This document shows positions 9,001 to 33,000 of a DNA stretch of 64,000 nt, in pieces. The number at the start of each line of letters is the position of its first letter. Position 1 is the first letter of the stretch. Made by a program: the position numbers and the translations under genes. The DNA is from an uncultured Planctomycetales bacterium (lineage in GTDB: Bacteria > Omnitrophota > Gorgyraeia > Zapsychrales > JAHFFX01). Below the pieces are notes generated by a model, which searched no databases, was not told the origin of the DNA, and was given only the letters and a program-made list of their open reading frames with translations. Where the stretch lies: the NCBI GenBank assembly GCA_964612665.1, contig CAZTCI010000001.1, positions 508,896 through 572,895 of the forward strand. Reading direction: 5' to 3'.

Positions 9001-12000
9001 GCGGTTTGCATCGATCATTTGCTGCGCTTCGGCGGCTTCATGATCTAAACGTGAACGGACATTCTTAAGTGTCTTAAACTCGACGGAAGTTTCATTGAAA
9101 TTGGGGAATGGATTATCTTGCGGCATGCCTAATTCGTTACGGACCTGCGCCAATTCTTCGGGAGTCAATAACTGCGAATGGTTTCCTTCCTGACCAATCA
9201 TCGGTCTTAGACCCCAGCCTTTGATCGTATGCGCAATAATTACCGTCGGGCGATCGCTGGCGCGGGCTTCGCTCAAGGCTTTGATTAACTCAACCAAATC
9301 ATGGCCGCCCAAATCGGTAAAGAGCTCATAGATTTTTTCATCGCTGTATTTCTTCAAGAACCGCTTTATTGGCCTTTTCCTTTCCAAAGAGAGTTTCTTA
9401 TTCTTATCATCCAAGGGAAAAGGCCTAATATTGACTTTTGTTTCTTCCTTTGGATTCACAAAAGTCAATAAAGAAGAACGTTGTTCGATCATCCAAGCGC
9501 GGATTCCGGCGCCGTTTTGAGCGGAAAGATTTTGGTAAACTTTCTGGTCGATTGTTTCCATAACTTTCCTAAAGACACTTCCCCCTCGTCGGGCAAAAGC
9601 CGCTTGCAATTTTCGGCCCCAGCGCAGTTCAACGACTTGCCATCCAGCCGCCGCGTACATTCCGCGCAGTTGATCCAATTTCCAGTTTTCGGTATTTCCG
9701 TCGAGTGATTGGCGGTTGTAATCGACAATATGCGTCACGCGGTCCAAGTTAAATTCTTTCACTAACGTCAGAATCTCCCGCAGGTTTCCTTCTTCAGATT
9801 CAGCATCACCCAAGACCGCGAAGAAATGCGAATCAGAAACCGCATGGCCATGCGCCTTGAGCCATTTCCAAACAACGTTAAGTGCTAAGGCAACCGCCGG
9901 CCCTATGCCAACCGAGCCCGTCGGAATTTTGACGCCGTCCGGGTCCGCCATTCCCGGATACGCGTGCAGGCCTGGTTTGTCTAATTCATCCGTGTTGACT
10001 TCCGGATGCTTGGCGATGAAGGCGGCTTTTAATTCTTCAAGTTCTTTTAAGACTTCTGGCGCAAGACGGCCCCTGATATCTTCAGCCCTGAAATCAACCG
10101 GCAGCCGGACAGCGTTATCACGCAAACGATAAAGTGTATCGACGGGTAATCGACCTAAAAGATATTGAATGGCATGATACACCGGCGCGGCGTGCGGTTT
10201 GTGGGCGACAAAATCATGACCGCGCATGACAGCCAGCTCGAGGGCGATCATAATGTGCAATGCAGACGCGGATGCAGCCTGGTGCCCGCCGGTTTTAGGC
10301 AGTTCATATTTAATTTTATTGGCTTCATCAATTTCACCGATTGAAATCCCAAGCGCCCGACGGGCGATGCTTTCTAAAGCTTCGATGTCCTTCGGTGCAA
10401 ATCCTTCCGGAATTTTATCATTTCTATTTCGGGGAGGCCGGTGTCCGGATGAGCTCATTGCAACAATCATCATCGTGGACAAGAACAACGCAGCCACATG
10501 TCCACCTACGAAGTAGGACACAGCCAATAGTCCATCCAGTGCCAGCGCGATGAGGACAAGCGCAGTTGCAAATACGGTGGAGAGGTTTTGATCTGAGCAT
10601 TCTTTTATTCCATTTTTTGTTTTTTTGGTTTCCTGAGCTGAAAACTTTTTCCACCAGGCAAACGTTTCACTCAAACCCGTCCCAATATTCTTTTGTCGTC
10701 TCAACTTGTTGACAATCAAAATGATTAATGTTATGTTGGCGTCGAAAAGATCATTGATCAATAATTGCGTGGCCCTCTTTGAAAGATGGGAGAATCGTAA
10801 GTGAAGATCTGGGAATTTGAATGGGACAACTGGAATATTGAGCATATTGCTAAACATTCCGTAAAATCTCAAGAGGTAGAAGAAGCTTGTTATCGCCGCC
10901 ACGTCGCTAAGAAAACTAAAGATGACATTTATCTTGTCTATGGTCAAACGTATTCTGGCCGTTATCTTTTCATCGTTATTAAATATAAATCTAAAGGAAT
11001 TGTTTACCCTATAACCGCTCGAGACATGACTGATTCTGAGCAGAGATTCTTCCTTAAACGGAGGTAACATATGATTAAGAAGTCTTCTGTAATCCCAAAA
11101 TTTAAGAATGTCGCCGATGCGGCTGAATTCTTCGATCAACATGATACGACCCAGTTTCTCGACGAATTGCAACCAGCGCATCTTAAGTTCCCTAAGCCCA
11201 AGCATCTTTTGATCACCTTGAAACCTAAACAAATAACGAGGCTCAGACGCTTGGCCGACAAAATGGGTAAACCTTCCGATCAAATTGTTGAGCAATGGAT
11301 CACCCAAAAACTTGCCGAAGGGTAATGATCTGCCCAATGTGGCACGGCTCAATTTCTTTACAATCTCTTTAAAAACGCCTTTCGCTTTATCTGAGGATTT
11401 GGTTCGAATCGTCAGTATCAACAGCAACACATCAACGGCCAACACAAGGAACATCAAATGTAATCCCGGTCCCGGAACAAAATATCCTTTAAACACAACC
11501 ACCGGACGTTCCTCATCAGGCAGAAAACCTAATTCCTCGCGGATCTCCTCGGGAGATATTCTTAAAATATGTATGGGCTGAGGATGATCTTCAAAATATT
11601 TTAAGAACAGGCTTGTAATCGTTTGTCCGTTATCAGAAGCAATATGAAGACGGCCCAGAATAAAAAACGTGTCTTTAGCAGCTTTTCGGCCGCGCGATAA
11701 GATATTGATCATATTGGGGAACATGAATGGTTCCCTTAGGTCAATAGCGAATCTAAAGTTCTCCGAGACATTGATCCCTTTCAAAATTTCTTGAACAGCG
11801 GGCTCGGCCTGGCCGACGACATGATTTTCGCGTTTGGCTCTGGCCATGAGGGCTTTTATAAAAACAACAGTCAAATCACGCCAAGTTGTCAAGTCTTTAA
11901 GCATGTCCGCTGAGTTATCCGGGGGCAATGTTACGATCGCGGAAAAAACGAGACTGTTCCGGGTGTTGTAATAAAGAGAAATGCGTCTGTATAACGTTGT

Positions 12001-15000
12001 AACAGGGTGCATATAGCCGGGAGGTAACCATTGGGCCAAATCCTGCCACGTGGGAAGGATGAACAAATTCAACGCAGAATGAATAAATCCTCTTTTTAGC
12101 GATTGCAGTTTATCTAAAGAAACCTTCGAAGGGTCGGACAGCCATTGTTCATATTGCAGATAGTCATCTAATCGGGTGGCCAATTCATAACTCAAAATCT
12201 CCTCGACGCCAAACAAATGTCCTTTGGTACTACGGTTAAAATGGGTCGACACATACCACAGTTCGTCTTCTTTAAACCGGGCCACTCCTTCGACACCCGC
12301 AAAGATTTTCTTGCGTGCGGCCAGGAGATGGATCTCTTCTCTAAATAATTCATGCTCGGGATTGGTATGGTTTTCCCCGATTAAAAACAATCGCGGTGCG
12401 GATTCGGGTTTCAGGCGGACAGCGAGGAAAATTAATGTGCTCAATAAAAACGTCAGGTTTAAACTATTATCGAAACCATGGACGGCAATAAAGAAGCTCT
12501 TGAAATTTTCAGTCTTTTCCAATTTTCTTGACGACAATTCTTTATTGATCTTGTTGCGTTCTGATGACACATAGGCCAGGACAGCATCCAAAAATTTTCG
12601 ATGGATTGAATCTGTGGGTTTTACAATACGGCCATATTCCGCATATAACGATACAGCTTTATCAAAGGAAACTTCCCAACGGAAGCTGACAGTCTTTTGC
12701 CAAACAATGATTTGGCCCCGCCCGACAGATGACAAGAAGGCATTGGCTTTCTCGTCCGACGGGTTTTTCCGCGCCTGCAGCAAAACACACTCTCCATTAA
12801 ATGGAGGATAAAGAACCATCCGGTAAATAAAACCCAAATCACCCCCAAATTTTTGTTTCCTAAATAAATTTTCCAGTGCCTTGAAATGATGTTGTCGGTT
12901 GGAAATATCTCCCCCTCCTTTAGGAAGATATCCGGCAGCAGCATTAATCTTTGACCAAATTGCTTGAACGGCTTTTTGTTTGACATTAAATCTTTCCGCT
13001 ATCTGTTGATCACTTAGACCTTCAACGAAACCATATAAAATATTCAATTGTTTTTCCGTAAATACTGGTTTTGCCACATCGAATTTTGGAAACGGAGGCC
13101 TCCGGTCGACAAGTCCTAACTTTCTCGCTTTTTTGATAAGTTCCCTTCGCTCCGACGTCACAGCCAACACTTTATAAAGTCTCGAAATCTTTGAGCGTAT
13201 ATTGATTGCCGGTGAACTCAGCGCCTGGCCGATCTCAATCGTAGTATTTCCTTTATTAAGCAATCTTAAGATATGAAGTTCAAGCTCACTTAGGATGAAC
13301 GCATGTTTTTTTGCGAAAAGTTGTTTAGGTTTAACCAGCCGCTCAGACGATCCGAAAATCGCCACGCGGTATTCTTCATGCTGATTGAAAAATTTCCAAA
13401 GAAGATAAGGGTAATCATTATTAAAGTCGCGGGGTCCGCTTTTAATTTCCAGATTTAAAAGTTGATGAATTTGGCTCCTTGACTTGCGGATGGTTTCGGA
13501 CCCTGTCTCAAGCTGAGCGGCAATGTCCTTGTCATTTAATCCAGCATAAAGGCCTTTTAGAATGGCTATGTGTCGCGAAGAGAGTTCTTCGACGGACGCA
13601 CAAGATTGAACGCTGCGCGCTATGGCCGCGAGGACAGCGACAAAGATAAAACTGAAATTGGATAAATAATCCGATGGATTTGTAAGGATAAAAAAGTTAT
13701 GCTCTCGCTGCAACCCTGGCAAAAGACTTTGATTATCTCTTTTACGAAAGACTTCAAAGGGTTGAACAAACATAAACTGCGCGCCCGCTGTTCCCCTGCT
13801 AGTTTTAAAAACTTCACTTTGCCTAATCTGATTATTCAACGCATCGAGCGCTTCTTTAAGCGGTTGCGAGGTAATCAAATCTTTCCAGCCTCTTAAGAAG
13901 CCTATCTGTTCGAGCGCGCCAAAGATCCATGGTTCTTCATCAAACACAATAATGGTATCACTAGACCTTAAATCCCTTAATGTATTAAGCAGCCTAACCA
14001 CGACTGGTTGATCGATCCAAAAAGTTCCTTTTAGAATAACAGTCACACTTTCTTGTCCAGCTCGACGTAGAAATTCGACAATATCATCCAGCGCGTTGTC
14101 GATGTGTAACGTTTCCTTAGGGTAAATTCTATTTAGCAAAATTTTTTCTGGCTCCATAAACTGATTCACGAATGATTGCAGCTCCTTATAAGCTCTTTGC
14201 CGGTCTTCATGGTCATAGAGCCGGTCAATTCCGAGGACCAATTGGGCCGGCAGCTCCGCCACAAAAATGTCAACGCCTATTGCGGGATAAATCCGATACG
14301 GTTTTAAGAGACCAACCGCCGCTAAGACTTCTAACTCTCGCCGCCAGGCCTCGGCCAATGGCCCATAATCAACGCTTCCCCGCGATGCCAACCGTCTGCC
14401 TTGTTCTTCAACTATCATGGAAATCGCTTGAATCTGCTGGAGAATTTCTTCTTCGGAAATTATTTTGCCTCCGGTCCGTCTTGTGCTCTTTCGTAACGCT
14501 CGAACCAAAAATATAACCAGCGCGCTAATTGAAATTAGAGCAGCTGCGGCATAAATAAAACCAGTATCAACTAACATCGACGATGATTCTGGATATTTCG
14601 CGTCATAAGTTTTCGCTAATTGATACAACGTCCGCTCTACACGGTCTTTAAGACGGAGGAATTGCCTTTCTGATAGGGTCAATGTCACCATTATCTCTGG
14701 CCAGGAGCATGTCAGAATATGATTATTATTGTTTTTCTCAGCGAAATCACTTTGGCTTGTATCACTGACCGCATCCATAAGGACTTCCAGTTCTAATAGC
14801 GCTTTGACAATTATCTGACTTGTTTCTTCACCTCGACGATAAACATCGGTCATATCTTGTTTGGTTGGCTCCAACCTTTCATCCGTTGAAGGTTCCGGAA
14901 CATTTTCAAGTTCCGTCTCAAAATCAAAAACTTGCTGCTCCAGTTCTCTTCCCTTCTTAACAGCCCAATCCAAGACCGACGCTTTATAAAACAAAAGTAC

Positions 15001-18000
15001 AAATTTCGGCCCGCGCAAATTATGCTTTAAAATATTTAAAATCCTTTCGGCTTCTTCTTGCATCTGGACATAAGAAATCTGGTCTTCATAAATCTGACCC
15101 ATGAGTATCTCAATCAGCTTTCGTTGATCTACATTTATTCTTTCCTCTCTCCAAATTCTCTCGAGGATTGAAGATGTTCCCGACAACTGGACAACCGGCA
15201 TCAGAGTCTCATAAAATTGAAACACCCTCTTTATCATTTCTGATATTTTTTCTGTTCTTTGTCCTTCATGCTGAGGCTTGAACCAAATATCGACTTCCGA
15301 CGTCACAATAAAATTCTTCATCTCTTCGTAATTGGTATTGATCTTTTCTCGAAAACTCTCAATCTTTTCTAATATAACGTTAAAGACTTTGTCCCACCCG
15401 ATTTCAGCTTCGGTTTTGTTTTCATCGGCCGATTTTGTGTCTCCCTCTCGATCCCCTGCTATGCCTTCCGAATGATTTTCAGTGACGATTACCACTATCA
15501 CTGCTCCCACCCACAACATAAAAGAAATGACCGAGAGATCTAAGAAGGAATGCTCATTGTTCCGGTTTCTGTTTCTGAAATTTCTCCTCCGGCCTGATGA
15601 ATTAAATCTTTCTGTCAACCGCCGTAGATCCTCTAAGTTTGCACTCATGCTCAAACCGTAGTCATTAAAAATATCTCTCAGCGTTTCGGTGACTTTGGAA
15701 ATTCCAGAAAAATCGACCTCTTGGCTCAATGAAAGCATTTCCAAGTTATATTGCCGCAGCCAGCCCTGAAATTCCGCGGGGGTGATTCCACGGGATTCCA
15801 AAGCCTCCCAAAGCCGGAGTAATACAATTCCCATTTCTTCGATTGTTTCCGATTGCTGCCGTTCTATTAAATATTCTCCGCTTGTCGCGGGTTCTGGCAA
15901 TCTTGCCGGTTTTTTTCTTGTTTTTTCCGGCCGGGGAATTCTATGGCGAGGAAAGGCATTGTAAACAGCGCGCTGTATATTTACGAGTTCAGTCACTCCG
16001 CTGCTGATGGCATTTTCAGCCGCATGCAATGCCTTTGTGAATTTACTCCGGCTGGAATTGAAAGACTCGAGGAGCCATGGAATAACTTGTTGGTTCAAAA
16101 TTTCTTCACCACGGCGTCTGGCTTCTTCGCTTAAATTAACCTGATGGGATAAAGAAATTCTCTTATTCATCCAGCGGTCTGCGACGACTAATCCTAAGAA
16201 TTTATATTCAGGATACTCATAAAGATAAACACTGTAACGCGGCTCGTCTTCATTCAATTCGACTAACCGGTATGACCTGCCTTCGCCCCGAAAATCTTCA
16301 TAAATTCCTTCACCCAAATCTCTCAAAGAAAACCAGACAAACTCTCCATCTCTAATCTTGAAGATATCCTCCAGCCATCTTCTTTCTTTTGTTATCTGAA
16401 CGAAATACTTTCCGGCCTGCAATTCTTTGGGGGTGGAATTTTGGGGATTAGGTTTCCGGCGTGTGACTAATGTAAACCACAGCCATTCACTCTGATCGCC
16501 GCGTGCCGTAACGATTTTGGCTTTCAGGGAAACATAACCTCGAGTTCCCCATGAATACCAAAGATCAGCGAATCCGCCTAAATACGCGTCTCCGACGTAA
16601 ATTTTATCTAAACGGTAAAGACCTGTAGATACTCTTGGGTCAACAGCTTCAATCCCTTGGCCTTTCTTAATAATCATGTCGAAACCCTTGCGGTGAAAAT
16701 CAGCGATGTCTTTTCTCACATGACTACTCCGCGCTTTAAGCAGCTTTTGTTGCTTTCCTTGAATGCCCCAATAGTGAAGAATCGGGGAACGTTGTAATTT
16801 TCCGCCGATATTTTCTTCAAACCATACCGCAACATACTCGGAATAAACTGAAGACCAGCGCAGCCCTAAGTTTCCATAACGCTTTCGGACTGTAAACGTC
16901 GAATATCTTTTTCCAAAGAGCGGAATCTTTCCGTCGGCGGTAGTTTTAACATTCTCAATCTTAAGCAATTCATATCCTTGGGCAGACCATCGCTGCGCCA
17001 GTTCAAGACTAATGACACTGTATTGGCCCAAATTTTTTTCACGTTGTCCTTCGCGTTTCGATCCTTTAACGACCAGAATTAAACGCTGTTGACGATCGAC
17101 CTCATGCAGCACCATTTCCTGCTTCACTCTTCTCCATAATTTTGTCCACAACCGTATCCAATCTCGACGGCGCGGATAAATCCGTCCAATTTCAATATCA
17201 TTAATAACTCTGGCACTAATGTCTGCCAAAAGGCCGGCGTCTTTTTGGGACATTCCTAATGACTCCCGCACGGCTTTTAATCTCTTCCCTGGTTCTTGAT
17301 AGAAGTGATCCAACAATATCTTCCAGTCTCGCACCCCCCATCTTACCCGTGCCCCTTTTTCTAATCCCTTAATTTTGAAAGGAGTGGTATTGGATAAGTC
17401 AGCGATTTTTTGCGGCGAGAGTTCTAATATATTCCTGAATAACTTTAACTCTCGTCGGGCTTCTTCATACATTGTATTCAACAATAATGCCAAATCATCG
17501 GCTTTCCATCTGGCATTCTTTGACTTTAAATCATTAATTCTATTTCTACTGATATGCGCAAGAGCCGCGAGTTCTTCTGGCGACATTCGCAAAGCTTCCC
17601 GCAATATCTTTAATTGCCGACCGGCCTCTTTATGCAGTTTATTCAATATAATATTCCAACGGTCAACACTCTCCCTAACATGACCATTCTCTAAAGCACT
17701 AATGCGTCTGGCCCTAACCTTGCTCAAAGCACCAACATCTTTTGCCGTCATTCTCAAAGACTTTCTTAATACCTTTAATTGCCGATGGGCCTCTTCATGC
17801 AGGTCCTCGAAGTTCCATAATTCCGATCGGGACATGTTGAGTAATTCTCTGGATCTCTCTAACAGTTCAATCGATTTTTTATCATCTTGCCCCTGTCTTT
17901 GGGAAGAAGCCGCCATGCCAAGAATCACTAAGGATAAAACGGAGTATACCATCCATAAATTGCTTATAATTTGAACAACCGTTAAGATAATAATCGTCGT

Positions 18001-21000
18001 CGGTAAAATGATCAAGATTTGGGCAGATGAGGTTTTGTCGCGATAAGTCTTTTCAAATTTTCTAAGTGATTTCTCGGTTTTAGAAAGGACGTCATTATAT
18101 GAAACAACCATGAAGACCGCTGCTGATACAAACATCAACAACGGCAAAACAAAATGCCCAGTTCCCCGGACACTTTCCCATCCGGTAAAGATCGGCACCA
18201 GAAAGGAATTTTCCACCTCAACATCGGAAGTTGAGGTCATTTTGCTCTGATTTTGCAGGATCCGAGCTATCCGGGAAAGATAGAGAACATAAATAACGCT
18301 TGCGAAACCAATAAGCAACGTGAACAATTCTCCATTGAAAGCAATCATTCCGAAACCAAACAACTTTGTACGATCTTCCATGAATGTTTTAAGGAAATCT
18401 CTCATCTTTTCTTGAATTTGAGATCGAAAGATATCCTGAACCCGGCGAGGCATAATATTCATACGGGTGCCCGCTTGTTTCCATGCTTCAAATTTTTCTT
18501 TGGTGAATTCTGCCATGAGCCATTGATCTTCTTCGATGGTCTTCAACATGCCACCTTTTTGGGGGTCAAACATTTCACCCAAAACTCTTGAAAAGTCATT
18601 CACATCAAAAGCGACCATGCGACCCAGCTTTCCATCATGAGAAAATGTCAGACCGTAATTTTCTCGCCAATTATGAAAATCGCGATCAACCAGTCCATAT
18701 GTCCAAATCCGACGCGTCAAATTCGAGAATTCGTTTTGAATGTGCCGAAGCTCCATTTGCAAAGCACTCACCTCATCCCACTGTTTATGTTTCTCAGAAA
18801 TCTTTATACGACGGGCAATGGCATCCAGCACTTCTCCAACGGGATGCACGCGTTCTTGAACAATCACATAAGGGAAACTGGTAAGTTTCTCATCCACGAC
18901 AATCGTCAAGTTATTTAAAATAGTCAACGTCATGGCAAAAAGATGGCCCAAATGTTCTTTAACCAATAGGTATCCAGGCAACACTTCTCTCTCGAAGTCC
19001 ACGTCGGCCTTCGGGACCTTGATAATAAGATTTGGAAACGCATAGGAGTAATATGCTTTCATCAGCCCGCCTTGGTCCAAATAATGAAAGGTATGACCTC
19101 GTAGAATACCTTCAACGGTGGTGATTCGAATGTGGTCAAGGTGTTCCTGTAAAACAGTATCCTCTATTCCCATTCTACGCCCCCATTGCATCAACCTTTC
19201 AGGCCAGCCCTCCATATAATTGTCCAATAGCGCTTCCAGAAGAGCATCTTTTAAATTGTTCCTGATCCGACGTGATATAGGTTGGAGGTGGCGTTGAATT
19301 AGTTTTTGATATAACCATCTGAGTATTAATATTAGAGTAACAGCAGTAACTGCGATCAACACCCCTACACGCCACCCATGCATCAGCTCGCTAGAAATAA
19401 GCTGGGCGTTGGATTTTTCCGTTGTTACATCAACCTGCGGGGCCGAAACAGATGAAAACATTTCATCCACCAGCCGTTTGGCTTCCTTGGCCGCATCCAT
19501 GCTTGAACTCATTTTTCCCGAAAAAATGGAAATCTCTCGCGGACTTAAATGCTGAACCGTCGTCGGCCGCGCCGCATTCTGAACCGAACTCACCAGAAAA
19601 TCTTTGAGGGTAAAGATCGAACCAATATGGATCGGATTGAAATCGTGGAAGAATCGATGAGCTTCTTCTTTGATTTGGTCAAATGCCGTCACCGTTGGAT
19701 TCCAGATGATATCGCGTCCCAGTAAATCTTTATACTCATCGGGAATTTCTGGAAATTTGCCAACGTTGAGATGATGAATCGAGTGCTTCACATGAGCGAT
19801 AAAGTGCGCATTATTGCCTAAAGGATTGATCCCGACAAACGGCCCGTCCATAATCAAAATACTTTTGCCCCGGAATGCCGGAGGAAGAAGGACGACAGGC
19901 AACTCAAAAACTTCGAATTGATAGTTTTGCTGATTGGCCGGTTCCGCAATGAACCGATTAATATCGCTGTAAACGGCGTAGACAACGGCATCATAGTTCT
20001 TTAATTTTTCCGGAGTTGCCTCCTGAATGAGCACCTGCACATTGAATTCCTTAAGTTTATCAACGGAGATCTCCGCCAGCTTGCGGATGTTCATAAAGTC
20101 TTCCCCAACAAGCAGCGATAATCCCACAGAATTTTGTTTTAACACCTCCGGATACTTTGTCTCGTAAGGCAAATTAAAACGATTTAATAAAGTCAAATAC
20201 TGCTCGGGCGTAACCGCGCTTCCTTCCGCGGCGATTGCATAGTATTGTTCCAAACTCAAAACCGCTTCACCGAAGACACTCAAAAAGCTTTCACGAGAAT
20301 TAATGACTTCTTGGACAGTTTCTGGACTGCGCGGGTGATGATAGCCGCGATGCAAGCGGCGATCCCAATTGCCGGACACGCCGCCGAAGAGTTTGTTGCG
20401 TTCATACAAAGTCACATCGTATCGAGAATCTTGAGCAATAAACCATGCGGCCGTGATCCCGAAGATTCCGCCTCCGATGACAGCGACTTTGCGTTTCGAT
20501 GGAGCAACAAACGCAGAACGGGACGCCGAAGGAGGTATCCCGGCATCGGCACTCAAATCGAAATCAAAGTATGGCTCCTCAAGCATGTCATCCAAATCGA
20601 TTCCCTCGAAGACCTCTCCCGAATTATCATTAGATTGAACAACTTTAGGATTCACGGGTTCTTCATCTTTCCAATTCCATCCGCCCGCTGCGATCTTTTC
20701 ATCAAACAACCGATGCGGATAACGCATAATGACCGCGTTGACGCCGGCGAATCCGCCCATGCCGTCGTGAACATCGTAACGGCCGCGGATGATGTATTCG
20801 CGATTCCAACGCACCGCTCCGTTTTTCTCGTGATAGCCTTGCGCCGCGTCGGGACTGTAGGTCAGCAATTCTTCCAGAGCATCGCGCCAGGCTTGCAAAG
20901 CTTGAATGTAAATGACCGCAGTGCCGATCCCGCCGACTTGCTTGCCTCGCACGCGATAATGATCGACCCGCGGATGTTTGGCCACAGCCAAGACCGATGG

Positions 21001-24000
21001 AATCGGCGCTCCGACGGAAAAATTAAATCTGACATTGCCATCGTTGTCCTGGATTCCTTCTCCAGCGAGCGTAAAGCGATTCGTCAGCGTCTGAACGTGT
21101 TCCAAAAATGTGCCTCGAAATTCCTGCGCGTCACCATGCTGAATCAAGTCGATCATCTCCGGCGTTAGTTTTTTCTGAATGCTCCAGATCACCGCGCCGA
21201 TGTAACGTCGAGTCACTGCCGAGCGAATCATTTTCCCATCGGCATCCAACGGGTGTTCGAAGACCTCCGCGACCACATGTCCCGTTGGGTGATTCAGAAT
21301 CATGGAACGAATTTGACGCGGACGGATCTGTTCGTAGGGCTGATTGACCCACGCGTCGTTATGAACCTGATAAAGTTCAAGGACATTCTCCAACGTCGGC
21401 CAGCGATACACAATCGTAATCCCCTGCTCCGGACGCTCCTCGCGCACGAACAGCGCCAGGTCGTCCAGCGGAATCTGCTCTATATTAGGAAAGAAGCGCT
21501 GCAGGGCATGATTCAATGTCGTGGGGATGTCTTGCCTTTGGAGCGCCAGCGGCGACGGAGCGGTGGACTCAAAATTCTTGATGCGGAATTGATAATATTC
21601 ATCTAAGGTGCTAAACCACGTTGAGAGCGGATGGCGATTGTTCTGGCGCCGAGCCGCTTCAAGAAGGCGGGAAGTTGAGCCAGAGAAGAACATCGTCGTC
21701 AAATGGCCGTTCAGATGGAGAGCTCTGGTATGAAGGATGGATACAACAAGGACTAAAATAATAGCCAAATTCAAAATCATCATCCATCCCCTGTCGTCAA
21801 AACCGTGGATGGCGAGGAAGTAGGTATGGGTGTTAGAATCGGCCGGACGAGTTACATAAGAACTCTGTCTAAGGACGGTCGCAATCAAAGCGAAGGCAAC
21901 GACAATGTATATATTAGAGAAGATACCTCGAACCTTTTTCTGATCTCCTCCGAACGCCTGCTCCATCGTTTTAGTCTCGAGACGGCCGGGATTGAATGGC
22001 GTCCGATCTTCCATCACTTTCCTTAGAATTCTCAACCGCCCGCCCAAGGCCAGTTCGCGGGATTGTCTGGCCGTAATGACATCCACATCCTGATCCGTAA
22101 ATCCGCGGGTTTGGAAATTGGAAATAGGATGCGCGTTAAAATTCTTGAGACGGGAATATTGTGCGTCGGTCAACCGGGCCTTGGCTTCATCCACATAACG
22201 GCCGGACGCAATCATTTGATCGGCTAATCCTTGAGGAGCAAAGACCCCGAATCGGGTCGGATGCTCCCAAACAACAATGATCACTCCCATTGGAAGACTC
22301 GCTAAAAATTCTTCTGTCCATCGCCGCGTCGATTCCAAGGGCGAAATGGTTCGATCGAGTTTGCGCGTTAGCCAAATATAAATATATTCATAAGCAAATT
22401 TTAAAAACACAACGTCCGCCGGCTTTATGTCTCGAACAAACGCTCTCATTTCATCTCTCGACATCAAATCACTCATATGATGATGAAGAGGCGCCAACTT
22501 TTCCAATCGCAGAATCGGATGACCGACGATCCCGACCAATTTTTCTTTCAGTCTTTTAAAACCCATCGTGATATCCCACTCACTCAGCCGATTGTCCACA
22601 GTTGTCATGGACGAAACATAATAACCGGCAAATAAATCAATCCCGGAAAGGATGTTGTGGAGTTGCGTATTGTTACGATTGAAGATCCCGATGGCGGAAA
22701 GGAGTTGTAATTGCAGGAAATAAATTCTGACTTTGATCGGAATCACGCTGTGTACGGTGAGCTGATCCTCACCGAGCCGAATCTGCTCTTCAATTTTACT
22801 GAGGATTTTTCGAACCGATTTTAGTGAATGGAGGAATTTAAATTTGAAAATGGAAACGACCATGAGTAACACGATGGCCAAATTCAAAATCATCATCCAT
22901 ACCCCGTCGTCAAAACCGTGAGTGCCGAGAAAATAGGCTTTGGTGTTGGAATTAGGAACCATGCACGGCATGTTCCACCCGATCATCATGTATCGGTTAA
23001 AAACAGCGATATCATGGTTCCCATCAGGTTTGACACCTCCAGTCATGTGTGTTATTCTTCCTTCACCGGAGGGGGACAACCAATGCATAAACGAAAGGAT
23101 AAAAACATGAACGCCATCAACATGACGGACATCGTCCGCAAGTCGATGCAAGAACTTGTTGTCCCTGAGTTGAAAATCTTGCAGGGTGATGTTCAGAGTC
23201 TCTAGAATGACAATCTTGAGATCAAGGCTGATCTTCGGATCCTCAATAACCGTGTCGACAATCTGGAAAAATCTTTGAACAGCCGGATGGATTCTCTCAA
23301 CAGCCGGATGGACTCCCTCGAGAAAAGGCTGGATAACTTGGATAAAAGGGTTGACGGCCTTGAAAGGCAAATTCATAGCATGCGCGAGGATTTTAAGCTC
23401 GCGCTCGATATTCATGAGCGGCTCACTGCGCTTGAAGTCAAAATTTCTCATCATAATTAGGCAGTGGTTTTGTTGACGAATCATCGCCGGGCCGATTTCC
23501 TCAAAGTTATATAAAGGAAATCGGCCCGTTGTTTTTTGGTTGCTGTATACGATTTTATAGAACGCCGTCACTGTCGAATCCCAGATCATATCGCGCCTAA
23601 GTAAGTCTTTATATCCCATCCCACCGGATTGACCATACCAAATGAAATAAACCAATGCCCATAAAACCAAGGCCACATCAATTCCAACCATGTATGATAA
23701 ATATGCCGATTGAACGCTGTTTTTATTTTGATCTGGCTCAAACGCAAACAAGCGCACGGACAGACGCGAATTCATATTCCTTAAAAGTTCATTTTGCTCA
23801 TTTATGATTTTTTCCAAATTCAACCGTCTCGCGATGGCCGCCGCGCCCACCAGTGCGACAATAACTTGGATCTCCCGTTGACCGGGCAGCCAGTTTTCCT
23901 GAAAATGCAGACGATTCATCTTCTTGATCAATTCTTTCTTCAAATTTAATTTTATTGATCGAATTTTGCCGGCCCGGGACGACAGAGGCACGTCAAAACT

Positions 24001-27000
24001 TTTGACTTCCACAAAAACTAATCGGTGGTTAGAGTCGATCAACACAGCGTCGATTTCGAACGACTTGTTTTCTCGATGGGGATCAGCGATTTCTTTATTC
24101 AAACTCACTACTTTGAAATGAAAATCCATCAGCAACTTGTGTACCGCCCGCAACTCATTGAGCGTGCCAAATCGTAACCCTTTTTTGATGCGGTAAAGAG
24201 CTTTCTCGATACCGTCCTCATTTAGGAATCTTTCCACCAACGAGGCCTCATTCACATTCAACGTCGGTTTCACCTCAGACCAAAGTTGTTGAATGTACGT
24301 TCGCCTGTCTTTCTGATGCTGTTTCCAAACCCGCTGATAAAATCCGCCATCAATCCATCCGTGCTCTAACGATAATCCCAGCCATCGCTCTTGTTTTTCC
24401 CACCGAGAAAAGATAAGCGGCTGGAAGAATTCTCGCGCCTGCAAAAAGGCCTGCACATCTTCATTGAGAAGCTCGTCGGAGTTCTTTAAAGGAGAAACAG
24501 CGCGGCTCAATTCATGCCGCAACAATAGCTTGAGCCATAACCGGCCGGTGCCAGGTTGCAATTTATTGAACATCTTCACAATCCTCTCGACCTGCCGGTG
24601 AATCAAAATGACGTGGTGTTGCGGATCATAGTCAGACATCAGGTCGATCAGTTCTCCCGTTGCTAATGGACACAGAATATGGTCTGCCCACAAAACCGTT
24701 GTAACCTTGGCCAAACGACTGTAATCCAAATTAAAGCTCTCAATGTCTTTAACAGCGATATCAAACCTTTCCGGAAAGTAAAACGCCTTCCCGTCGGAAA
24801 ACTTCAATGTAAAATGTTCTCGCCAGTTTCCTTCGGCCAATGAAACTCTCTGCGTATCTTCGTCGGTTGACGATGATAAGGCTTGTTGAATGTCGTTGAA
24901 CAACGCGTCCGTCGCTCGCAGCGACGGGCCTGATGGCGTCTTTAAATAAACCCCTTCACCTTCTTTAATCAACTCCGGCGCAACAGCCTCAGGCCATATC
25001 GCCCAGTGCCGATGAGACATCTGCACAGCCGCCGCAAGAGCGGCAGACATCAAAACAAGACTTACAATGCCAGCCCAATGCCAAACAATCATTACAACCG
25101 CCACAATTAAAATAATCCCCATGAATAAACTTTGATTTTGGTCTTCGTTCTTTTTATCGACGGATGCGCAGGATGCGTTATGACCGTTGCCATCCGCCAA
25201 AACCAATTTGTGCCGGCGCCAAAATTCATCGAGCTTCTCGGGATAGTTCACGACCGTTTTTACATCCAGCAGTGAGAATTCTTTGAATAAACTAAAGGCC
25301 ATATTGACCAATTGCTGTTCCGTGACTGGAAGTGACGGTTTATAAAAACTTAAAACCGCGTGTTTAAGCATCCCTTTTTTGCCGTCGGTCGCAAATCCGG
25401 ATTTTTTCTTCATATCCGTCAGCGCCTTGCGGATCGCCCAAATTAAATCCTGGTTGTTTTCAAAAGCCCTGGCTTCTTCCGTCGATATAAATACAGCCTC
25501 CTGAATAGGAACGATGATTGTTCCATCACCGTTCTCAAAAGGTCCTGTCAGTTTAAACAATTTCCGTTTTTGATCGACCTCATAAACCCTGGCCATCGCA
25601 TAAATATTCGTCATCACATAAATTGCCCATTGCCGGCTAATCAAATCTAAATCTTCCGCTGACAACCATAAATGAATAGGGAAAGACGGCTTATGTTCGT
25701 GGTAGCCCATCGAAATTTTATTGGGATTGCTTCTGCCTAGGATAGCGGCCGCTTGTTTATGGGTGATGCCGGGTAAAAAGGCTTTAATCAAACGGAAGCG
25801 CTCACGCATCCCCATCCATTTATCTAAGACCCTCAACGACGGCTGGCCGCTTGCAGCTCGTCGCTGGTTAATTTCCACCACCCAGTGTGCGATTGTTCGT
25901 TTAGGAATATTTGTCATCTGCGCGAGCTCTTCGGCCCAGGTGATGGTCAATTGTTCAGCCATGGATTCAACTAACTCTTGGCCCTGGGCATGTGTTGTTT
26001 GTGGACGTCTTTGTGATTGCTCAACCCATCGCTCTAAGAAAGCAGTATCCTCGGCGCTTAAGGTAATTTTTAAAATAGACAACAGGTTTTGGACAGCTTG
26101 CGGTTTCGGAATAGTAAAGCCTCTTTCCCATCGGTCGTATCTTGCTTTGCGGATTTCCATTCCGGGCATAGCATTGAGCATAAAGTCAAGCTGACGTCTC
26201 GATATAGTTTCGTCCTGGCGTTCTTTCTCGATGAGTTCGAAGACGCGTTTCAGGAAATCTCTGTATGCCGCATCCCGGGTCCACGGCAAGTTGCCGCGCG
26301 TCAATTCCACAACAGCCATTACCCAAAAGATACCAAGCCCGAGCAGTCTAACGCCCCAACCGCTCCCCAACGTCTCCCATCCAATCACCGCCTTCGCTTC
26401 ATGATCGGATTTTCTTTCATCGGAATCAACCGGCGAAATTGAAAAATGATTGGCGTTTATCGATGGGCCATTTTCAAAATCCAAATACTGAATAAACTGT
26501 TCAAATCGCTTCCAGAAAACAATGGTGACATCTATATTCTTCGTCGGATGATTGGCTTTGATAGTCCAGAATCCGAAGGCCGTGGTCCATTTCAATGACT
26601 CGATAATTTTAAAATCGCGGGACAAAACATGCTGCAAATGGTAGGCATCTTCCATAGAAAAATGCGCCATTTTTCCAAACTGATAAATGGGCCCTTCAAA
26701 CGGCAGATGGAATTCCCAATGTCCTTCGGAACTTTTCGGCAAATTCGCAAAAAGATCCGCCATTTGCGCACTCAAACATAAGCTATTATTACCGCCCACC
26801 ACAATAACATGGTGCGCGTAAGGCCATAGCTCGTCGGTTAAGTACTCTGATTTATAACCCGCATGACTTAAATAACTATCATCTCCGTTCAGATTCTCAC
26901 TGACATTTTCAAAAACGGCAGTGATCCTGGGATTCTCTAAAAGCTTATTGATAGACGAAGCGGCTGTCTTCAAAGGATCAAACTCTTCGTTAGTATGAAC

Positions 27001-30000
27001 GATCACCAACGTCCATGGGTTAGGAACTTTTTTAGACAAATGCGCGGACAAATGATCTGAAATGGTTTCTTCCAGCGCACTCTGCCAGATATATCGTTGA
27101 GAACGACCGGCAAGAAGTTCGATTCTTCTGGATGAAGAAACGATATTTATATTAAGAAAATCAACATTCTGTTGCCTGTGGATTTGCTGTGCCGCCAGCT
27201 GGACAACGCTATGTAGGATAAGGCCGGCTAACGCGGGTTGATTGTTCAGTTTCAAAAGACCGACGACAAATCTGCGGGGAAGATAAATGACGGGGCCATT
27301 GTCATTCCATTCCGTCGCAGCGACAGCCACATGACGCCAGTTGTCCGCATAAAGGAATGGTTGGCTCTCATCTTCGCGATCGCGAACCAAGATCAATTGA
27401 CTTCGAAGAAGGATGTCAAACAAATCGCTCGCCGCGACGAAATCAAACAATCCTCCCCGAATTTGATCCCACGGGATATTCATCAACGCACTTAAACTCG
27501 CGTCGAGAATTGAGCGATGCAACTCCATGTGAGTTAATAACGGTTCAACATAACGTTCATTCCTTCGACGAACTTTGTCGATTAGTTCCTGGATTTTCTT
27601 GTACTCTATATTCCATGCCTTCACTAACCTGCCGTTCTCATGATTTGTCATGACACCTGCGGCGGCCATCAGCATGAGGGAAGCCGTCACCGCAATGAGA
27701 CTAAAAGACCAACCACCGCCGAGCTGCTCCCATCCCAACAAAGCCTTCGCTTGATGATCTTTGTGATTAAATCTTTTATCGTCTGAATTAACCAGGGGCG
27801 TAATATCTTGAGCCATGGGCAGCGGCTCGATATGATTTCCGTTCGTGGATTTTTCTCTTGGCTCCCGTAAAAGTGAAGCCTCGTAGCCAATACCTCGATC
27901 TTTTCCATTATTTGGCCATAAACGATATTTCTGCAAGAACGAAGGGTCCTTAAGACTCTTTTTCAAATTTTGAATCATGATTCGACTCTTTATATCGCTT
28001 TTGAGAAATTCATTCCTTAACCTCAGAATGATATTCACAAACTGCTGTTGAGTTACAAGGACTCTTGTTTCTTTAAGCATCTGGTGTCCATAATATTTTA
28101 TGGCCATGCTGATGAGTTGCTTGATATCAGACTTTCCACCGTATGAATTCTCACTATATTCCTCAATAACTTTTCTGATCGCTTCGATCAAACCTGGATC
28201 ACCTTCCACCCGTCGATATTCTTCTTCTGTGATATAAACTGCATTCTCCTCGGGAAGCAGCATGACATCACCATTCGCAAACGGGCCTTCTATTTTTAAA
28301 AGACCGTCCCGCTTGGCTATCACGTGGCCAACTTTATAATAACGGTGTTCGACATATAAAACATCATTCTTAACGGGGTTAAAGCGGCGTCCAGGCATTT
28401 GAAAACGCCACAGAGGATATAAATTCTTTTCCAATTTTGAGATGATCTTAAGACTTATTGGATAGAGCGTATTCTTGCGAGGCAATCTCGCGCCACGGAT
28501 TTTCGCAACGGAAACTTCACATATCTGAACAAGACGCTTATCGGAGATCTCCATTATTTTGGGATTGTCCATAAGGCGATTGAGCGCTTCGCGCGCCTCG
28601 ATGAGTTGTTTAAGCACCGGCCGCATCTTGGCGATCACGTTTTCAGATGGAGTGGCTTTTTGTAGACGATATAGCTTGGCATCACGAGAAACTTTGGAAC
28701 GCTGATTGATCTCTGAATCCGTAATGCCCAGTTGGTTGGCTTGCGTGAGCAGTTGAACCAGTTCTATTCGAAGTTTTTTGAGATCTGGCCTTTGTTCTTT
28801 GAAATATTCCGTCAGGGCCATAAGCAATTTAGAGATAGTCGATGCGTGCGGCAACGTCCTATTTCCGGCTGCAATCATACTGATCGTGGTCTGATCCACC
28901 CCAGATAATTTTGCCAAACTCTCCTGATTTAATCCTTGCTCAAAAGCGTTCGTCATCAAGACGAGTACACTTCTAAATTGTTCCGCCGGAGATCCTGCCA
29001 TAGGCAGTCGATCCAATTTACTTTCAATCGATGCAATCGTATCTCGCCTTAATTGCGCCGGAGCCTCTCCTAATATTTTGCGCAGCGTTTTGTCATCAAT
29101 ACCCAATCTCGCCCGGATGGCCCGTCCCGAATATTGGCCTTCCTTATTAAGTCTCTTGATGTAATTCTGAAGGTCAACGGGAAGAATCACCATCACAGCC
29201 AATCCCGACAGGATTTTTAATACAATTATTATTCCTTTGAGGCCGATCAAAAGCCACGTGGATTCGAGGGTGATCGAGGAGAGTTTCTCCGTGTTTTCGT
29301 TTGAAGATTTTTTCCCAGGTTTGTCTTCATACTGCGCCACTTCTTTTAATTTCGACGCCAAACGATCAATATAGTCCTGAGCCTCGTCGGTGACGACGTA
29401 ACCCTGAGCTTCCAGGACATCCAAAACTTCCAGCACAAAAGCGGCCATCATCAAATAATGAATCAAATTTCTACTTTTCCAAGAAGACCATTCTCGAGGA
29501 GAATTTTCTTCTACATAGATCGGTTGAGGAATCGTTTCAACACGGCCTCCCACTTCTCTCAATTGCGAATGAATATTCTCAATCTTAGGAAGATAATCAA
29601 CATACCGCCACAACACATTTTCTTCTGTCTCGATATCCACCCCTTCGCGGAAATAATTCCAGGCCGTCACGATCATTTTCTGATCATAATCTCGCTTTGA
29701 AACGATTCCTTCCCGTCGAAAAACGTACTCACGATCAATCGTGCCCGAAATCATATGCATATAATACAGATCAATATATCGTCGGCCGCCGTTATTCCAT
29801 GGTTTTAAGTCCAAGTTGAATCGTTGATTGGCCTGGAAAATAACCTCGGGGTTAATCAATGTTCTATACAATAGAAGTTCCGTACCAATGGAATCGATGG
29901 TTCTCGTATCCGTGTCGATGAGTATAATTCGGTCTGTTTCCGGAGATAAAATCCCCTCGTCGTGCCAGTATTTGACAAAAAGGACCGCTTGAAGTGAATC

Positions 30001-33000
30001 TTGCCGAACGGCTTGGTCATTGTGCATTGTCGCCCAAACACTATGCATGCGCTCTTCAGGAAATTCTTCTGTAATTCTGGTGTAAATCTTTGACATTTCA
30101 AAAAGCGGTTCGGCTCCTGCTCGCAAGAACACAATACGCGTGTTCTTCCGGTATTGCTTATTCTCTTCGTGGGATCGAGGATATTCTTTGATACGCATGA
30201 ATACGTGTTGTATGAAATCCATCAATCCCAGTCTGCGCTCGGCGCCATGACCCAAAAATGTCGTCAAATGTTTAGTATCCAAATAGTGTTGATACGCTTT
30301 GGCAAACATTGCTTGATCCCCCGCAGAAAAGATTCGTCCGAGGGATTGAATACTCTGATTACGCGCGCGAACATTATCTTCATGTAATCTGAGTCGATTT
30401 AATCTAACCGAGGCAATGGCCGCAAATCCTGCCAGGATTTTAAAGATCAGCATTACACCCTTGATGCCGATTATGATCCACGCGGCGTCGAGGGTGAGGG
30501 CGGGAAGCTTTCCAACATCAGATGTTGGAAAGGGCGGGTTCAACCTGCGGGGTTGATGTCCGTTGGCATGCTTCTCTTGCGGATGGGTGAACTTTTCCGA
30601 GGAAAACTTCTTTATATCTTGGTCGCTCCACTCTTCTCCAAACACCTTTTTTAAATCCGATTTATTTCCGTTCTTTCCGTTCCTCTCCTTCTTTGCCAAA
30701 TCGTCATAGAATTTTTTCATGATCTCATCTTGCCGACGATCGAACTCCTCGGCGGAGAGAGACCAGTCATCTCGCTCTCGTTTGTATGCTTCCTCCGGTT
30801 TCCGATTCTGATTTAACCAAACGTCCTTAAGAACATCGTAGAGATTACACAACATGCGATTCCCCGCAAATTGCCTTAATCCCTCCCGATTGTCCTTATT
30901 CTTCAATATAATGCGGGCCATTTTAGTCTTCTCGAGATCCTGCTTGAGAAGGTGAACTAGGGCTTCATGGCGTCCGAGGTTTATTTTGGCCTCCCCGAAC
31001 ATGTCTTTCACAATTTGAACAAAAAGCTCAGGACCGATCTCCCTCATCGATAGCCAGGCATGCAAGACGATTTCTACTTTTTCTTCCTCGCTTTGAATAC
31101 GATGATGCCAAATCCAGATTTCATCAGAATTTTTGAGACCGCCAGAGGCATGGGAAGATCGAGAAAGGTCCCCATAGATCACACCGACGACGAAGAAGAC
31201 CACGATCAACATTTGTATCGGCGAGAGAACCGTCGACTCCACTCCCAATCCCAAGGCATTCATGGCCGTTGGTTTCCCGGGCCCGCGGAATGCTGTGAGT
31301 TCATTCAACCTGCGGGGTTGATGCCCGTCGGCAATTTCATTCGAAGACTTGATGTGGCGGAATCCTCGGTCGGAGATGTTCAATGTGAACCCATCCTCAT
31401 CAGAGAAACTACTGTAAAACAAAATCTCCCGGGCCAAATACGTTTCGTTAAACTCGATGACCAGCGCCTCACGCTTTTGGCCCATCTCCAACAGATCGTT
31501 CCACAAGAATGTTCTTGAAAAACGAAGTTCGCCAGCACCGATACGAAACGTAATGATGATGTCATTTCCGATGAGCCGGCCTTTCACAAAATAGATCCCT
31601 TGATCTTCCGTCACAATCCGGATTCTGGAATGTCTCAACAGCGTTGAAATCGGCAATTTGATTACTTCTCTGATATGATAAACTTTCTGGAGGGAATATT
31701 CGGCGTAGAAGGACAGCTCGTCTGCATCTGGAAGATGAAGGATAAAGTCATGAATCGGCGGCAATCCGCAGGCGGAATTGGTGAGCATGGCCATGATCAT
31801 AAAACGGATCAGCGTCGGGCTGCGAGTGAAACCAGCGACCTTAAGCCAGAATAGCCATACGATCATTGCCGTAATCAAAACGGCGAGGAAATATGCTAAG
31901 AAAGCAGCTGATAATTTCTCCTCAGAAGACGTCTTCCACCAGGTATATTTTTCCTTCATCTCATGATAGGAATTCAAAATAAGATTTAACGTTCCCTTCA
32001 CGCTTTGTTCCGTTGTCCCCCGCTCGGTGCTGATGTCTTGAATCGTCCATCCATTTAAGATCAGCGTAATAATCTCGCGCTGCGGCGGCGACATTTGATT
32101 CAATAGGGCCCGACGATGTGGATCCAATGATTGAGAATCGCGGATAATTTCGCCCAGGATTTGTTTCCGTTGAGAAGCACCCGCGCCTTGGAAATGAATG
32201 TTGATGCCTTCATGCAGCGGATATAATTCATCGCACCTTTCTTCCCGTTCAATTTGTTCTCTTAGGGGTTTCAAAGACAATTCGTTCTTAAGATCACGGT
32301 ATCTGAGTAATCCTCGACGGGCGGTGATGATCACCGTAGTCCACTTAATCTGCAATAGTCGGGCCACATCCGCCGGATGATAACCTGCAATGGCAAACGG
32401 AAGAATTTCTCGCTCCTTTTCCTCCAGCTGATCAAAGATCTCTCGATGGTCCAAGAGAAAATCTTGTTTAACCTCTCTGAGAATATTGATGAATTCTCGA
32501 CGGTTGGGAGATTTCAGGAAGAAATTGAATTCCGCATCTCGATCGTTGCGGATAACCATCATGGCCAACATGCCGGGTAAAAGGAGTATGACCAAAAAGT
32601 AAAGGCCCTGTATTTCTATAAAAATGATCTGTGTAAACGCGATCAAGACAAGCACGGACGGGAATACGGCGGAAAGTTTTTCCACCTTCCGATCTTGCGA
32701 TGTGGGGGCCAACTCTTTCTCAACAAGCTCCCCACGATATACCATCCGCTGAACAAGGCCCATCGGATAATTGATTTCTTTTAAGTCACCCTTATAGGCT
32801 TCACGCCGGATAACTTCATTGAGCAGGCGAAGTTTCTTTTTGATCTTTTGGACCTGATCTTTTTCTTGCGCACTTAAACTTTGATGATTAACGTATTTTT
32901 TGTGAAGTGTATAATCGTAAACGCTGAGCGAGATCGTCTGTTGTTCTTCTCCAACAATAACGACATTACCTTGATCCCCGGCTGGTTCGATGAAGAATTG

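Follow-up and report, generated by a model that had tools for sequence, protein, structure and literature searches.

We analysed a 64,000-nt stretch of DNA, hereafter the window, from an uncultured bacterium of the Omnitrophota lineage (assembly GCA_964612665.1, contig CAZTCI010000001.1, positions 508,896 to 572,895 of the forward strand). Six-frame translation showed that the minus-strand frame read from the first codon 63999-63997 contains no stop in 21,333 codons; the five remaining frames contain 849-1344 stops each. This giant open reading frame (ORF), a membrane-rich patchwork, covers positions 1..63999 (−), is open at both window ends and therefore exceeds 21,333 codons. The subject of this report is a small coiled-coil gene nested antisense within it, the frame of which is interrupted by a single TAG at 23203-23205.

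The nested unit begins with a sigma-70-type promoter at 23030..23058 (+), detected by promoter scan and composed of TTGACA, a 17-nt spacer and a TG-extended TATTCT. Perfect-TTGACA promoter-like sites occur four times on the plus strand of the window, and three of the four are located directly upstream of nested units. The translation start region (23068..23109, +), defined by sequence reading and a scan for Shine-Dalgarno (SD) and start sequences, offers two candidate starts: an SD-like GGAGG (23068-23072) lies 10 nt ahead of ATG 23083 and an SD-like AAGGA (23095-23099) lies 7 nt ahead of ATG 23107. From ATG 23107 (alternatively ATG 23083) the frame runs for 32 codons up to the TAG at 23203-23205, beyond which it stays open for 84 further codons as far as a second TAG at 23458-23460. 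The claim of an earlier reading of this sequence (the original prediction) that a heptad-repeat ORF continues in the same frame across a single TAG is thus borne out. A giant-frame SD (GAAGGAAG) followed by an ATG is also present at 23044-23066 (−), right after the nested unit in the giant direction and back to back with the nested promoter.

Both parts of the ORF carry motifs of one protein family, as judged by alignment and phmmer. The N-terminal 32 codons (23107..23202, +) include the motif ..IVRKSMQELVVPELKILQGD.. with the invariant Pro20, and the C-terminal 84 codons with the terminal TAG (23206..23460, +) include the motif REDFKLALDIHERLTALEVKI, in which E104, R105 and E110 are kept. A 21-nt tandem duplication (family D1, 86% identity) at 23272..23313 (+) corresponds to exactly one heptad, SLNSRMD being present twice. 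Downstream, an intrinsic-terminator-like element at 23488..23539 (+) comprises a hairpin of 14 perfectly paired base pairs (CGGGCCGATTTCCT/AGGAAATCGGCCCG) with TTGTTTTTTGG after it. The hairpin begins 28 nt past the terminal TAG and is the joint-longest perfect local inverted repeat of the window; the element folds with −33.2 kcal/mol (z = −4.3). The giant frame reads through this hairpin as ...TTGRFPLYNFEEIGPA..., and its peptide opposite the nested gene is proline-rich and implausible as a protein.

The unit is bounded by two TM (transmembrane) helices of the giant. One of them (VWMMILNLAIVLLMVVSIF; 22846..22902, −), downstream in the giant direction, has a paralogue at 21733-21789; the other (23641..23697, −), upstream in that direction, was located by hydropathy prediction. 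In the paralogous TM pair (21733-21927) the two helices are spaced by just 46 residues, and this short spacer suggests that the nested unit was inserted into the loop of a TM hairpin.

The triplet 23203-23205 is an exact codon of the giant frame. It reads TAG on the plus strand and CTA (Leu) in the giant, in the context ...KIVILETLN... (...DPKISLDLKIVILETLNITLQDF... and, over a longer stretch, ...KIVILETLNITLQ...), as the original prediction had it and as six-frame translation confirmed. The low coordinates of the giant codons and the nested start 23107 are all equal to 1 modulo 3, and the two frames, on opposite strands, therefore have common codon boundaries. The TAG falls within the palindrome TCTAGA (23201-23206). 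In the nested protein it directly follows the conserved N-terminal motif and occupies heptad position 'e', the register being read from the sequence. This position favours Glu, Lys and Gln, and a single base change turns GAG, AAG or CAG into TAG. Since these codons are read as CTC, CTT and CTG in the giant, all encoding Leu, the logic of a change silent for the giant is sound, and such a change would have left its protein unaltered.

Independent evidence of coding exists for both partners. On the giant side, it comprises the absence of stops, in-frame Pfam domains, paralogues and a codon-usage bias, and on the nested side, homologues together with the gene's own promoter, SD and terminator signals. 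Within the overlap proper, stop avoidance is the sole sign of coding in the giant. There, the codon-usage scores of the giant and nested frames tie at 0.29, and this contest does not decide between the strands. ORF length is no more informative: the mean stop-free run of the antisense frame is 24 codons, and runs longer than 84 codons occur more than 20 times. The case for the nested gene leans on other evidence because its length is unexceptional for the frame; its gene signals and homologues far exceed what chance would give. In a six-frame scan for hydrophobicity of period 3.5, the segment 23218-23385 (+) gave the strongest coiled-coil signal in 64 kb; the mirrored giant-frame peptide had a lower heptad rank and is full of Pro and Gly.

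Homology was decisive. An exhaustive HMMER (phmmer) search of 1.84 billion representatives retrieved about 18 small proteins of 89-155 amino acids, which match query residues ~8-115 in one stretch with 31-44% identity. The joined nested protein had no match in a word-indexed protein search, the family being found only by the exhaustive search. Searches of Pfam, NCBIfam and PDB sequences likewise gave no family model and only generic coiled-coil similarity, and cluster look-ups returned unnamed singletons on short contigs. Two motifs characterise the family, the N-terminal ..IQExVVPELQxIK.. and the C-terminal REDFKLAIDIHERLAALEAKL (HERLAALEAK type). All four family-invariant residues (P20, E104, R105 and E110) are present in the window copy. 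Its T107 replaces a near-invariant Ala, and homologue L017 likewise has ERLTALEVK. AlphaFold2 applied to an alignment of 8 sequences predicted long helices (pLDDT, the predicted local distance difference test, 94). The window copy resembles its relatives in length, in the terminal motifs, in the Pro, Glu, Arg and Glu residues, in the variable number of heptads and in this long-helix prediction. At least one relative is free-standing: in a Candidatus Anammoxibacter metagenome-assembled genome (MAG), L002 has carA on one side and a heptosyltransferase gene on the other. We conclude that the nested ORF is a real gene and not a mirror artefact, the homology being joined by the promoter, SD and terminator signals. 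The family is one of conserved, uncharacterised coiled-coil proteins of 80-180 amino acids.

We then considered whether the two parts separated by the TAG normally form one gene. A scan of loci in genomes and metagenomes, for which a subset of 8 sequences was used because an alignment of all 20 diverged too widely for this purpose, gave 27 distinct homologous ORFs, none with an internal stop. This count omits L044 and L045, metagenome-scan matches that looked spurious on inspection of their ORFs. Members of the family are uninterrupted ORFs of ~80-180 codons, and the window copy departs from this with its TAG at codon 33. It is the only examined member with an internal stop, and it also carries an extra heptad, which bears the TAG. 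Because homologues cover the two halves as one stretch and none of 27 ORFs has an internal stop, the comparison indicates that the halves are normally one gene and that the nonsense codon is peculiar to the window copy. The original prediction had named normally separate genes as an outcome that would overturn it; the homologues are instead single continuous proteins.

These features are probably best explained by a genuine nonsense change that struck a small gene residing in the giant and was synonymous in the host frame. The window lies wholly inside a giant membrane-rich minus-strand ORF, one inter-TM segment of which is occupied by a complete, autonomous plus-strand gene. Codon positions 1, 2 and 3 face positions 3, 2 and 1 of the partner, in such a way that only TTA, CTA and TCA in the nested gene would stop the giant, and vice versa, and both frames can stay open through synonymous codon choice alone. 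In the window copy, one surface (e) heptad codon, most likely GAG, AAG or CAG, would have become TAG. The same change in the giant would be a silent one from CTC, CTT or CTG to CTA and, because it is synonymous there, giant selection would not have opposed it. Provided that TAG acts as a normal stop, the product would be cut to 32 of its 117 residues and the gene inactivated. Consistently, the premature stop occurs where homologues continue, as expected of a pseudogene, and no in-frame restart signal follows it: the first in-frame start is TTG 23275, upstream of which no SD is visible. The substitution is probably recent, because nothing else in the gene is damaged. The data establish the coordinates and frames, the existence of the gene and its family, the uninterrupted state of the homologues, the codon purge described below and the avoidance of TAG in the giant; the direction of the mutation, its recency and the loss of function are what we infer. 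The giant peptide across the overlap would similarly be a filler constrained only to be stop-free. Judging from the family motifs, invariant residues and heptads, it is the nested gene to which the amino-acid information of the overlap belongs.

Several observations weigh against this explanation. The ancestral residue is unreadable from the homologue alignment because the TAG-bearing extra heptad (xNDNLEI) is absent from the closest homologues. The nested gene contains no further lesion, whether frameshift, additional stop or loss of a signal and, since it is flawless apart from the TAG, the lesion could have arisen very recently, be carried by only a minority of the population or reflect an error of base calling. 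The 84 stop-free codons downstream are only weakly informative, as such a run has P ~0.09 under giant codon usage. Finally, the TAG may be subject to site-specific read-through.

An error of assembly or base calling, or a minority allele, with the nested gene intact in most cells, is accordingly the first alternative to weigh, and we consider it rather unlikely. It would account for the intact state of promoter, SD, terminator, invariant residues and heptad register, as well as for the 27 uninterrupted homologous ORFs. Palindromic motifs can be methylation sites that cause systematic miscalls in nanopore sequencing. Such a miscall is conceivable at TCTAGA if the motif is methylated and the assembly is nanopore-based. 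However, substitution errors are rare in polished assemblies, and there is nothing unusual about one genuine nonsense mutation.

It is improbable that the parts are used separately, as a 32-residue peptide alone, as a regulatory or antisense-transcribed element, or as a 61-residue C-terminal product starting at TTG 23275. The preserved promoter and terminator would allow antisense transcription through the giant whatever the coding state. The homologues, however, are always single continuous proteins with the N- and C-terminal motifs in one chain, and TTG 23275 lacks a visible SD.

Decoding of the TAG by read-through, a suppressor tRNA, pyrrolysine insertion or a reassigned code, which would yield the full 117-residue protein, seems a little more doubtful still. 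It fits the perfect frame on both sides of the TAG and the family motifs retained in the downstream part, and an in-frame TAG in an otherwise intact gene is indeed what is seen in TAG reassignment (genetic code 15, pyrrolysine). The window differs from such systems in that TAG is absent from the 21,333 giant codons, where it is avoided as strictly as TAA and TGA, and from four other nested genes (BrnT, BrnA, VapB and VapC), all of which end on TAA or TGA. Moreover, TAG serves as a terminator here: it is the terminal codon of the coiled-coil gene itself, 28 nt ahead of the terminator stem, and reading past it would run into the hairpin. A tRNA scan found no tRNA gene within the window. TAG recoding, which the original prediction had listed as a second way in which it could fail, is thus unlikely and, within the window, contradicted by these counts.

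The weakest alternative, that the nested ORF only mirrors a giant coding sequence rich in Leu, Glu and Lys, its TAG being one of the 849 stops of that frame, could appeal to the local codon-usage tie, to the unexceptional ORF length and to the heptad-like nature of the antisense of a coiled-coil coding sequence, but it is effectively refuted by end-to-end homologues with family-specific non-coiled motifs, by free-standing homologues in ordinary gene contexts such as L002, and by the gene's own promoter, SD and terminator opposite a giant peptide that is proline-rich junk and translates even the terminator hairpin.

To place the nonsense substitution in context, we turn to the other genes nested in the window. 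A second nested antisense unit (10709..11325, +) has the promoter TTGACA-17-TATGTT and encodes a BrnT-like toxin and a CopG/BrnA-like antitoxin. The BrnT-like gene (10801-11067, +) matches the full profile of PF04365 with an E value of 9e-7, under the gathering cut-off, and the antitoxin gene (11071-11325, +) matches PF12441 above cut-off; both are codon-aligned with the giant. A third unit (38147..38842, +), with the promoter TTGACA-17-TATACT and the SD AGGAG, comprises a putative VapB-like gene (38200-38391, +), which has no Pfam hit and is codon-aligned, and a PIN/VapC gene (38375-38842, +), which matches PF01850 above cut-off and lies in frame +1. The BrnT/BrnA and VapB/VapC units thus each possess their own promoter with a perfect TTGACA −35 and 17-nt spacing, and SD sites were also seen for both. 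The VapBC unit is flanked by direct repeats of 200 nt (37709-37908 and 38915-39114, 84% identity). No convincing target-site duplication was found on either side of the nested units.

Among the five nested genes of the window, four are codon-aligned with the giant. These four contain no TTA, CTA or TCA among their 35 Leu and 25 Ser codons (joint P 3.8e-7, computed under the giant's own codon usage). In VapC, which is in frame +1, these codons account for 12 of 46. The purge in the codon-aligned guests therefore shows that selection keeping the giant frame open leaves a visible mark on synonymous codon choice in guest genes. This gives partial support to the rule of the original prediction that, where the strands conflict, selection follows the giant phase: it holds for stop codons, as the zero count of TTA, CTA and TCA shows, and fails for amino acids. 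Likewise, the expectation that nested genes can decay has one substitution in its favour, against which stand the intact signals and four invariant residues of that same gene, the four other guests of the window and two nested homologues elsewhere, all intact. All that the giant demands is that three codons be absent, and nested genes are normally maintained.

The same family was found nested in two other stop-free frames. In L018 (Ga0190363_1000022, a 92-kb metagenome contig), a minus-strand frame has no stop over the 12,282-nt locus (4,094 codons), and in L003 (CAZESF010000149.1, 1-2185; a 2.2-kb contig of a MAG labelled Planctomycetia) a minus-strand frame has none in 727 codons. The coiled-coil homologues of 100 and 88 amino acids, respectively, are antisense, codon-aligned and intact, and that of L018 has the promoter TTGACA-17-TATAGT. 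Both are devoid of TTA, CTA and TCA (GC content 0.31 for L018 and 0.37 for L003), whereas free-standing low-GC homologues contain 2-8 such codons. Similarity between these host frames and the window giant was undetectable, and the Pfam content of the two host frames is almost nil. Because the hosts are unlike the window giant, the association of the family with stop-free hosts is recurrent and not passed down with one host gene. A 71-residue basic ORF (5633-5848, +) just upstream of the nested homologue in L018 could be another guest. We had also entertained the idea that the window might be a synthetic sequence; the same architecture in natural public loci (L018 and L003) rules this out.

The giant itself has a codon-usage score of 0.27 bits per codon, compared with 0.07 or less elsewhere. 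In-frame Pfam matches include HATPase_c, several HTH_3, Sigma70_r4_2, GerE, Transketolase_N/pyr, the N-terminus of DAO and Methyltransf_11. SecA_DEAD-like matches are weak (PF07517, 23.2 bits against a cut-off of 24.6; P-loop_SecA PF21090, 19.7 against 27). About 84 TM helices are predicted by hydropathy, and internal paralogues share 26-77% amino-acid identity. Two giant segments, one of 720 residues around the TAG site and one of 459 residues that is SecA-like, had no homologue among 5.8 billion protein clusters. For the 720-residue segment no related locus was found in genome or metagenome collections, which makes comparison with an orthologous locus impossible. The idea that the giant might be a series of genes, each with its own translation start, gained no support, since SD-ATG combinations are not enriched in its frame: they precede 8 of 523 ATGs, fewer than the 32 of 643 in minus frame 2.

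Other features of the giant were recorded along the window. Its translation has a cysteine content of just 0.16%. Tandem modules of ~1 kb at 43951-45252 (85% nucleotide and ~75% amino-acid identity), each with an Xre-type helix-turn-helix, provide evidence of a recent internal duplication. The longest plus-strand ORF of the window (20245-21168, +), a codon-aligned antisense run of 325 stop-free codons with no Pfam match and a junk-like sequence, sits opposite the DAO/NAD-binding domain in a GC-richer stretch (0.50) and most likely owes its openness to base composition, as a shadow ORF. Within the giant, short DNA palindromes occur repeatedly. TCAACC-CCGCAG-GGTTGA (minus strand) is present in 6 copies against 0.12 expected (19430-19446, 30540-30556, 31305-31321, 33518-33534, 35184-35200 and 37683-37699), and further recurrent palindromic motifs were located at 49334-49366, 34014-34052, 36510-36548, 32668-32713, 33496-33541 and 34093-34138. 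The motifs translate to the conserved peptides HQPRRLN, HLHLRGVDG and PTPGVGKVEKL immediately ahead of TM helices, and what is conserved may be either the peptide or the hairpin. Neither Rfam nor tRNA scans gave a match in the window.

Codon-aligned antisense overlap is known from bacteria and viruses, where such ORFs often go by the name of frame −1 or 'shadow' ORFs. The arrangement in the window resembles these in its common codon boundaries, in stops that face TTA and CTA (Leu) or TCA (Ser), and in frames that can be opened or closed synonymously in the partner. It differs in that the embedded gene is conserved and has its own promoter and terminator, and that the host exceeds 21,000 codons and has a filler-like peptide in the overlap. 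It differs further in that the same family recurs in two unrelated hosts (L018 and L003), toxin-antitoxin pairs being embedded likewise.

As to the host, the window ORF resembles the Omnitrophota giants of the Archaeovorin type (West-Roberts et al. 2023, bioRxiv 10.1101/2023.11.21.568195), with more than 10,000 amino acids and many TM helices, and it matches the description of membrane-anchored patchworks in the 'multi-enzyme' class (Nielsen & Lui 2026, bioRxiv 10.64898/2026.06.07.730766). Further points of likeness are a set of unrelated Pfam domains, among them PF02518 and PF08241, and a sequence without close relatives. A divergent domain of the SecA DEAD type is at most a candidate in the window, where the SecA_DEAD match is under the Pfam cut-off. 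At the level of words, antisense, nested, opposite-strand, stop-codon and genetic-code terms are absent from both papers, as is 'promoter' from that of West-Roberts et al. (2023).

That one triplet reads TAG on one strand and CTA on the other is a consequence of known properties of the codon-aligned antisense phase, and a nonsense codon in a small gene is ordinary. What appears to be new is that giant stop-free frames thread through autonomous antisense genes, including one recurrent family. We tentatively propose, as a possibility short of an expectation, that giant ORFs are kept stop-free through autonomous opposite-strand genes, and that these guests, which include toxin-antitoxin pairs as well as the recurrent coiled-coil family with its constant codon-aligned phase, are perhaps functionally coupled to the giant. 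If so, the host frame would be selected for openness, and not for peptide sequence, in the guest segments. The strong antisense TTGACA promoters would fire against the giant transcript and could regulate or partition it, or supply a partner protein, and the TAG would be a natural on/off variant of a resident guest gene.

The site offers a clean example of opposite-strand genes sharing codons inside a giant ORF. The host would tolerate guest changes that avoid three codons, and a guest could be switched off without cost to the host. If general, this arrangement would bear on a question that the literature leaves open, namely whether giant ORFs are one translated chain and which part of them is under selection at the protein level.

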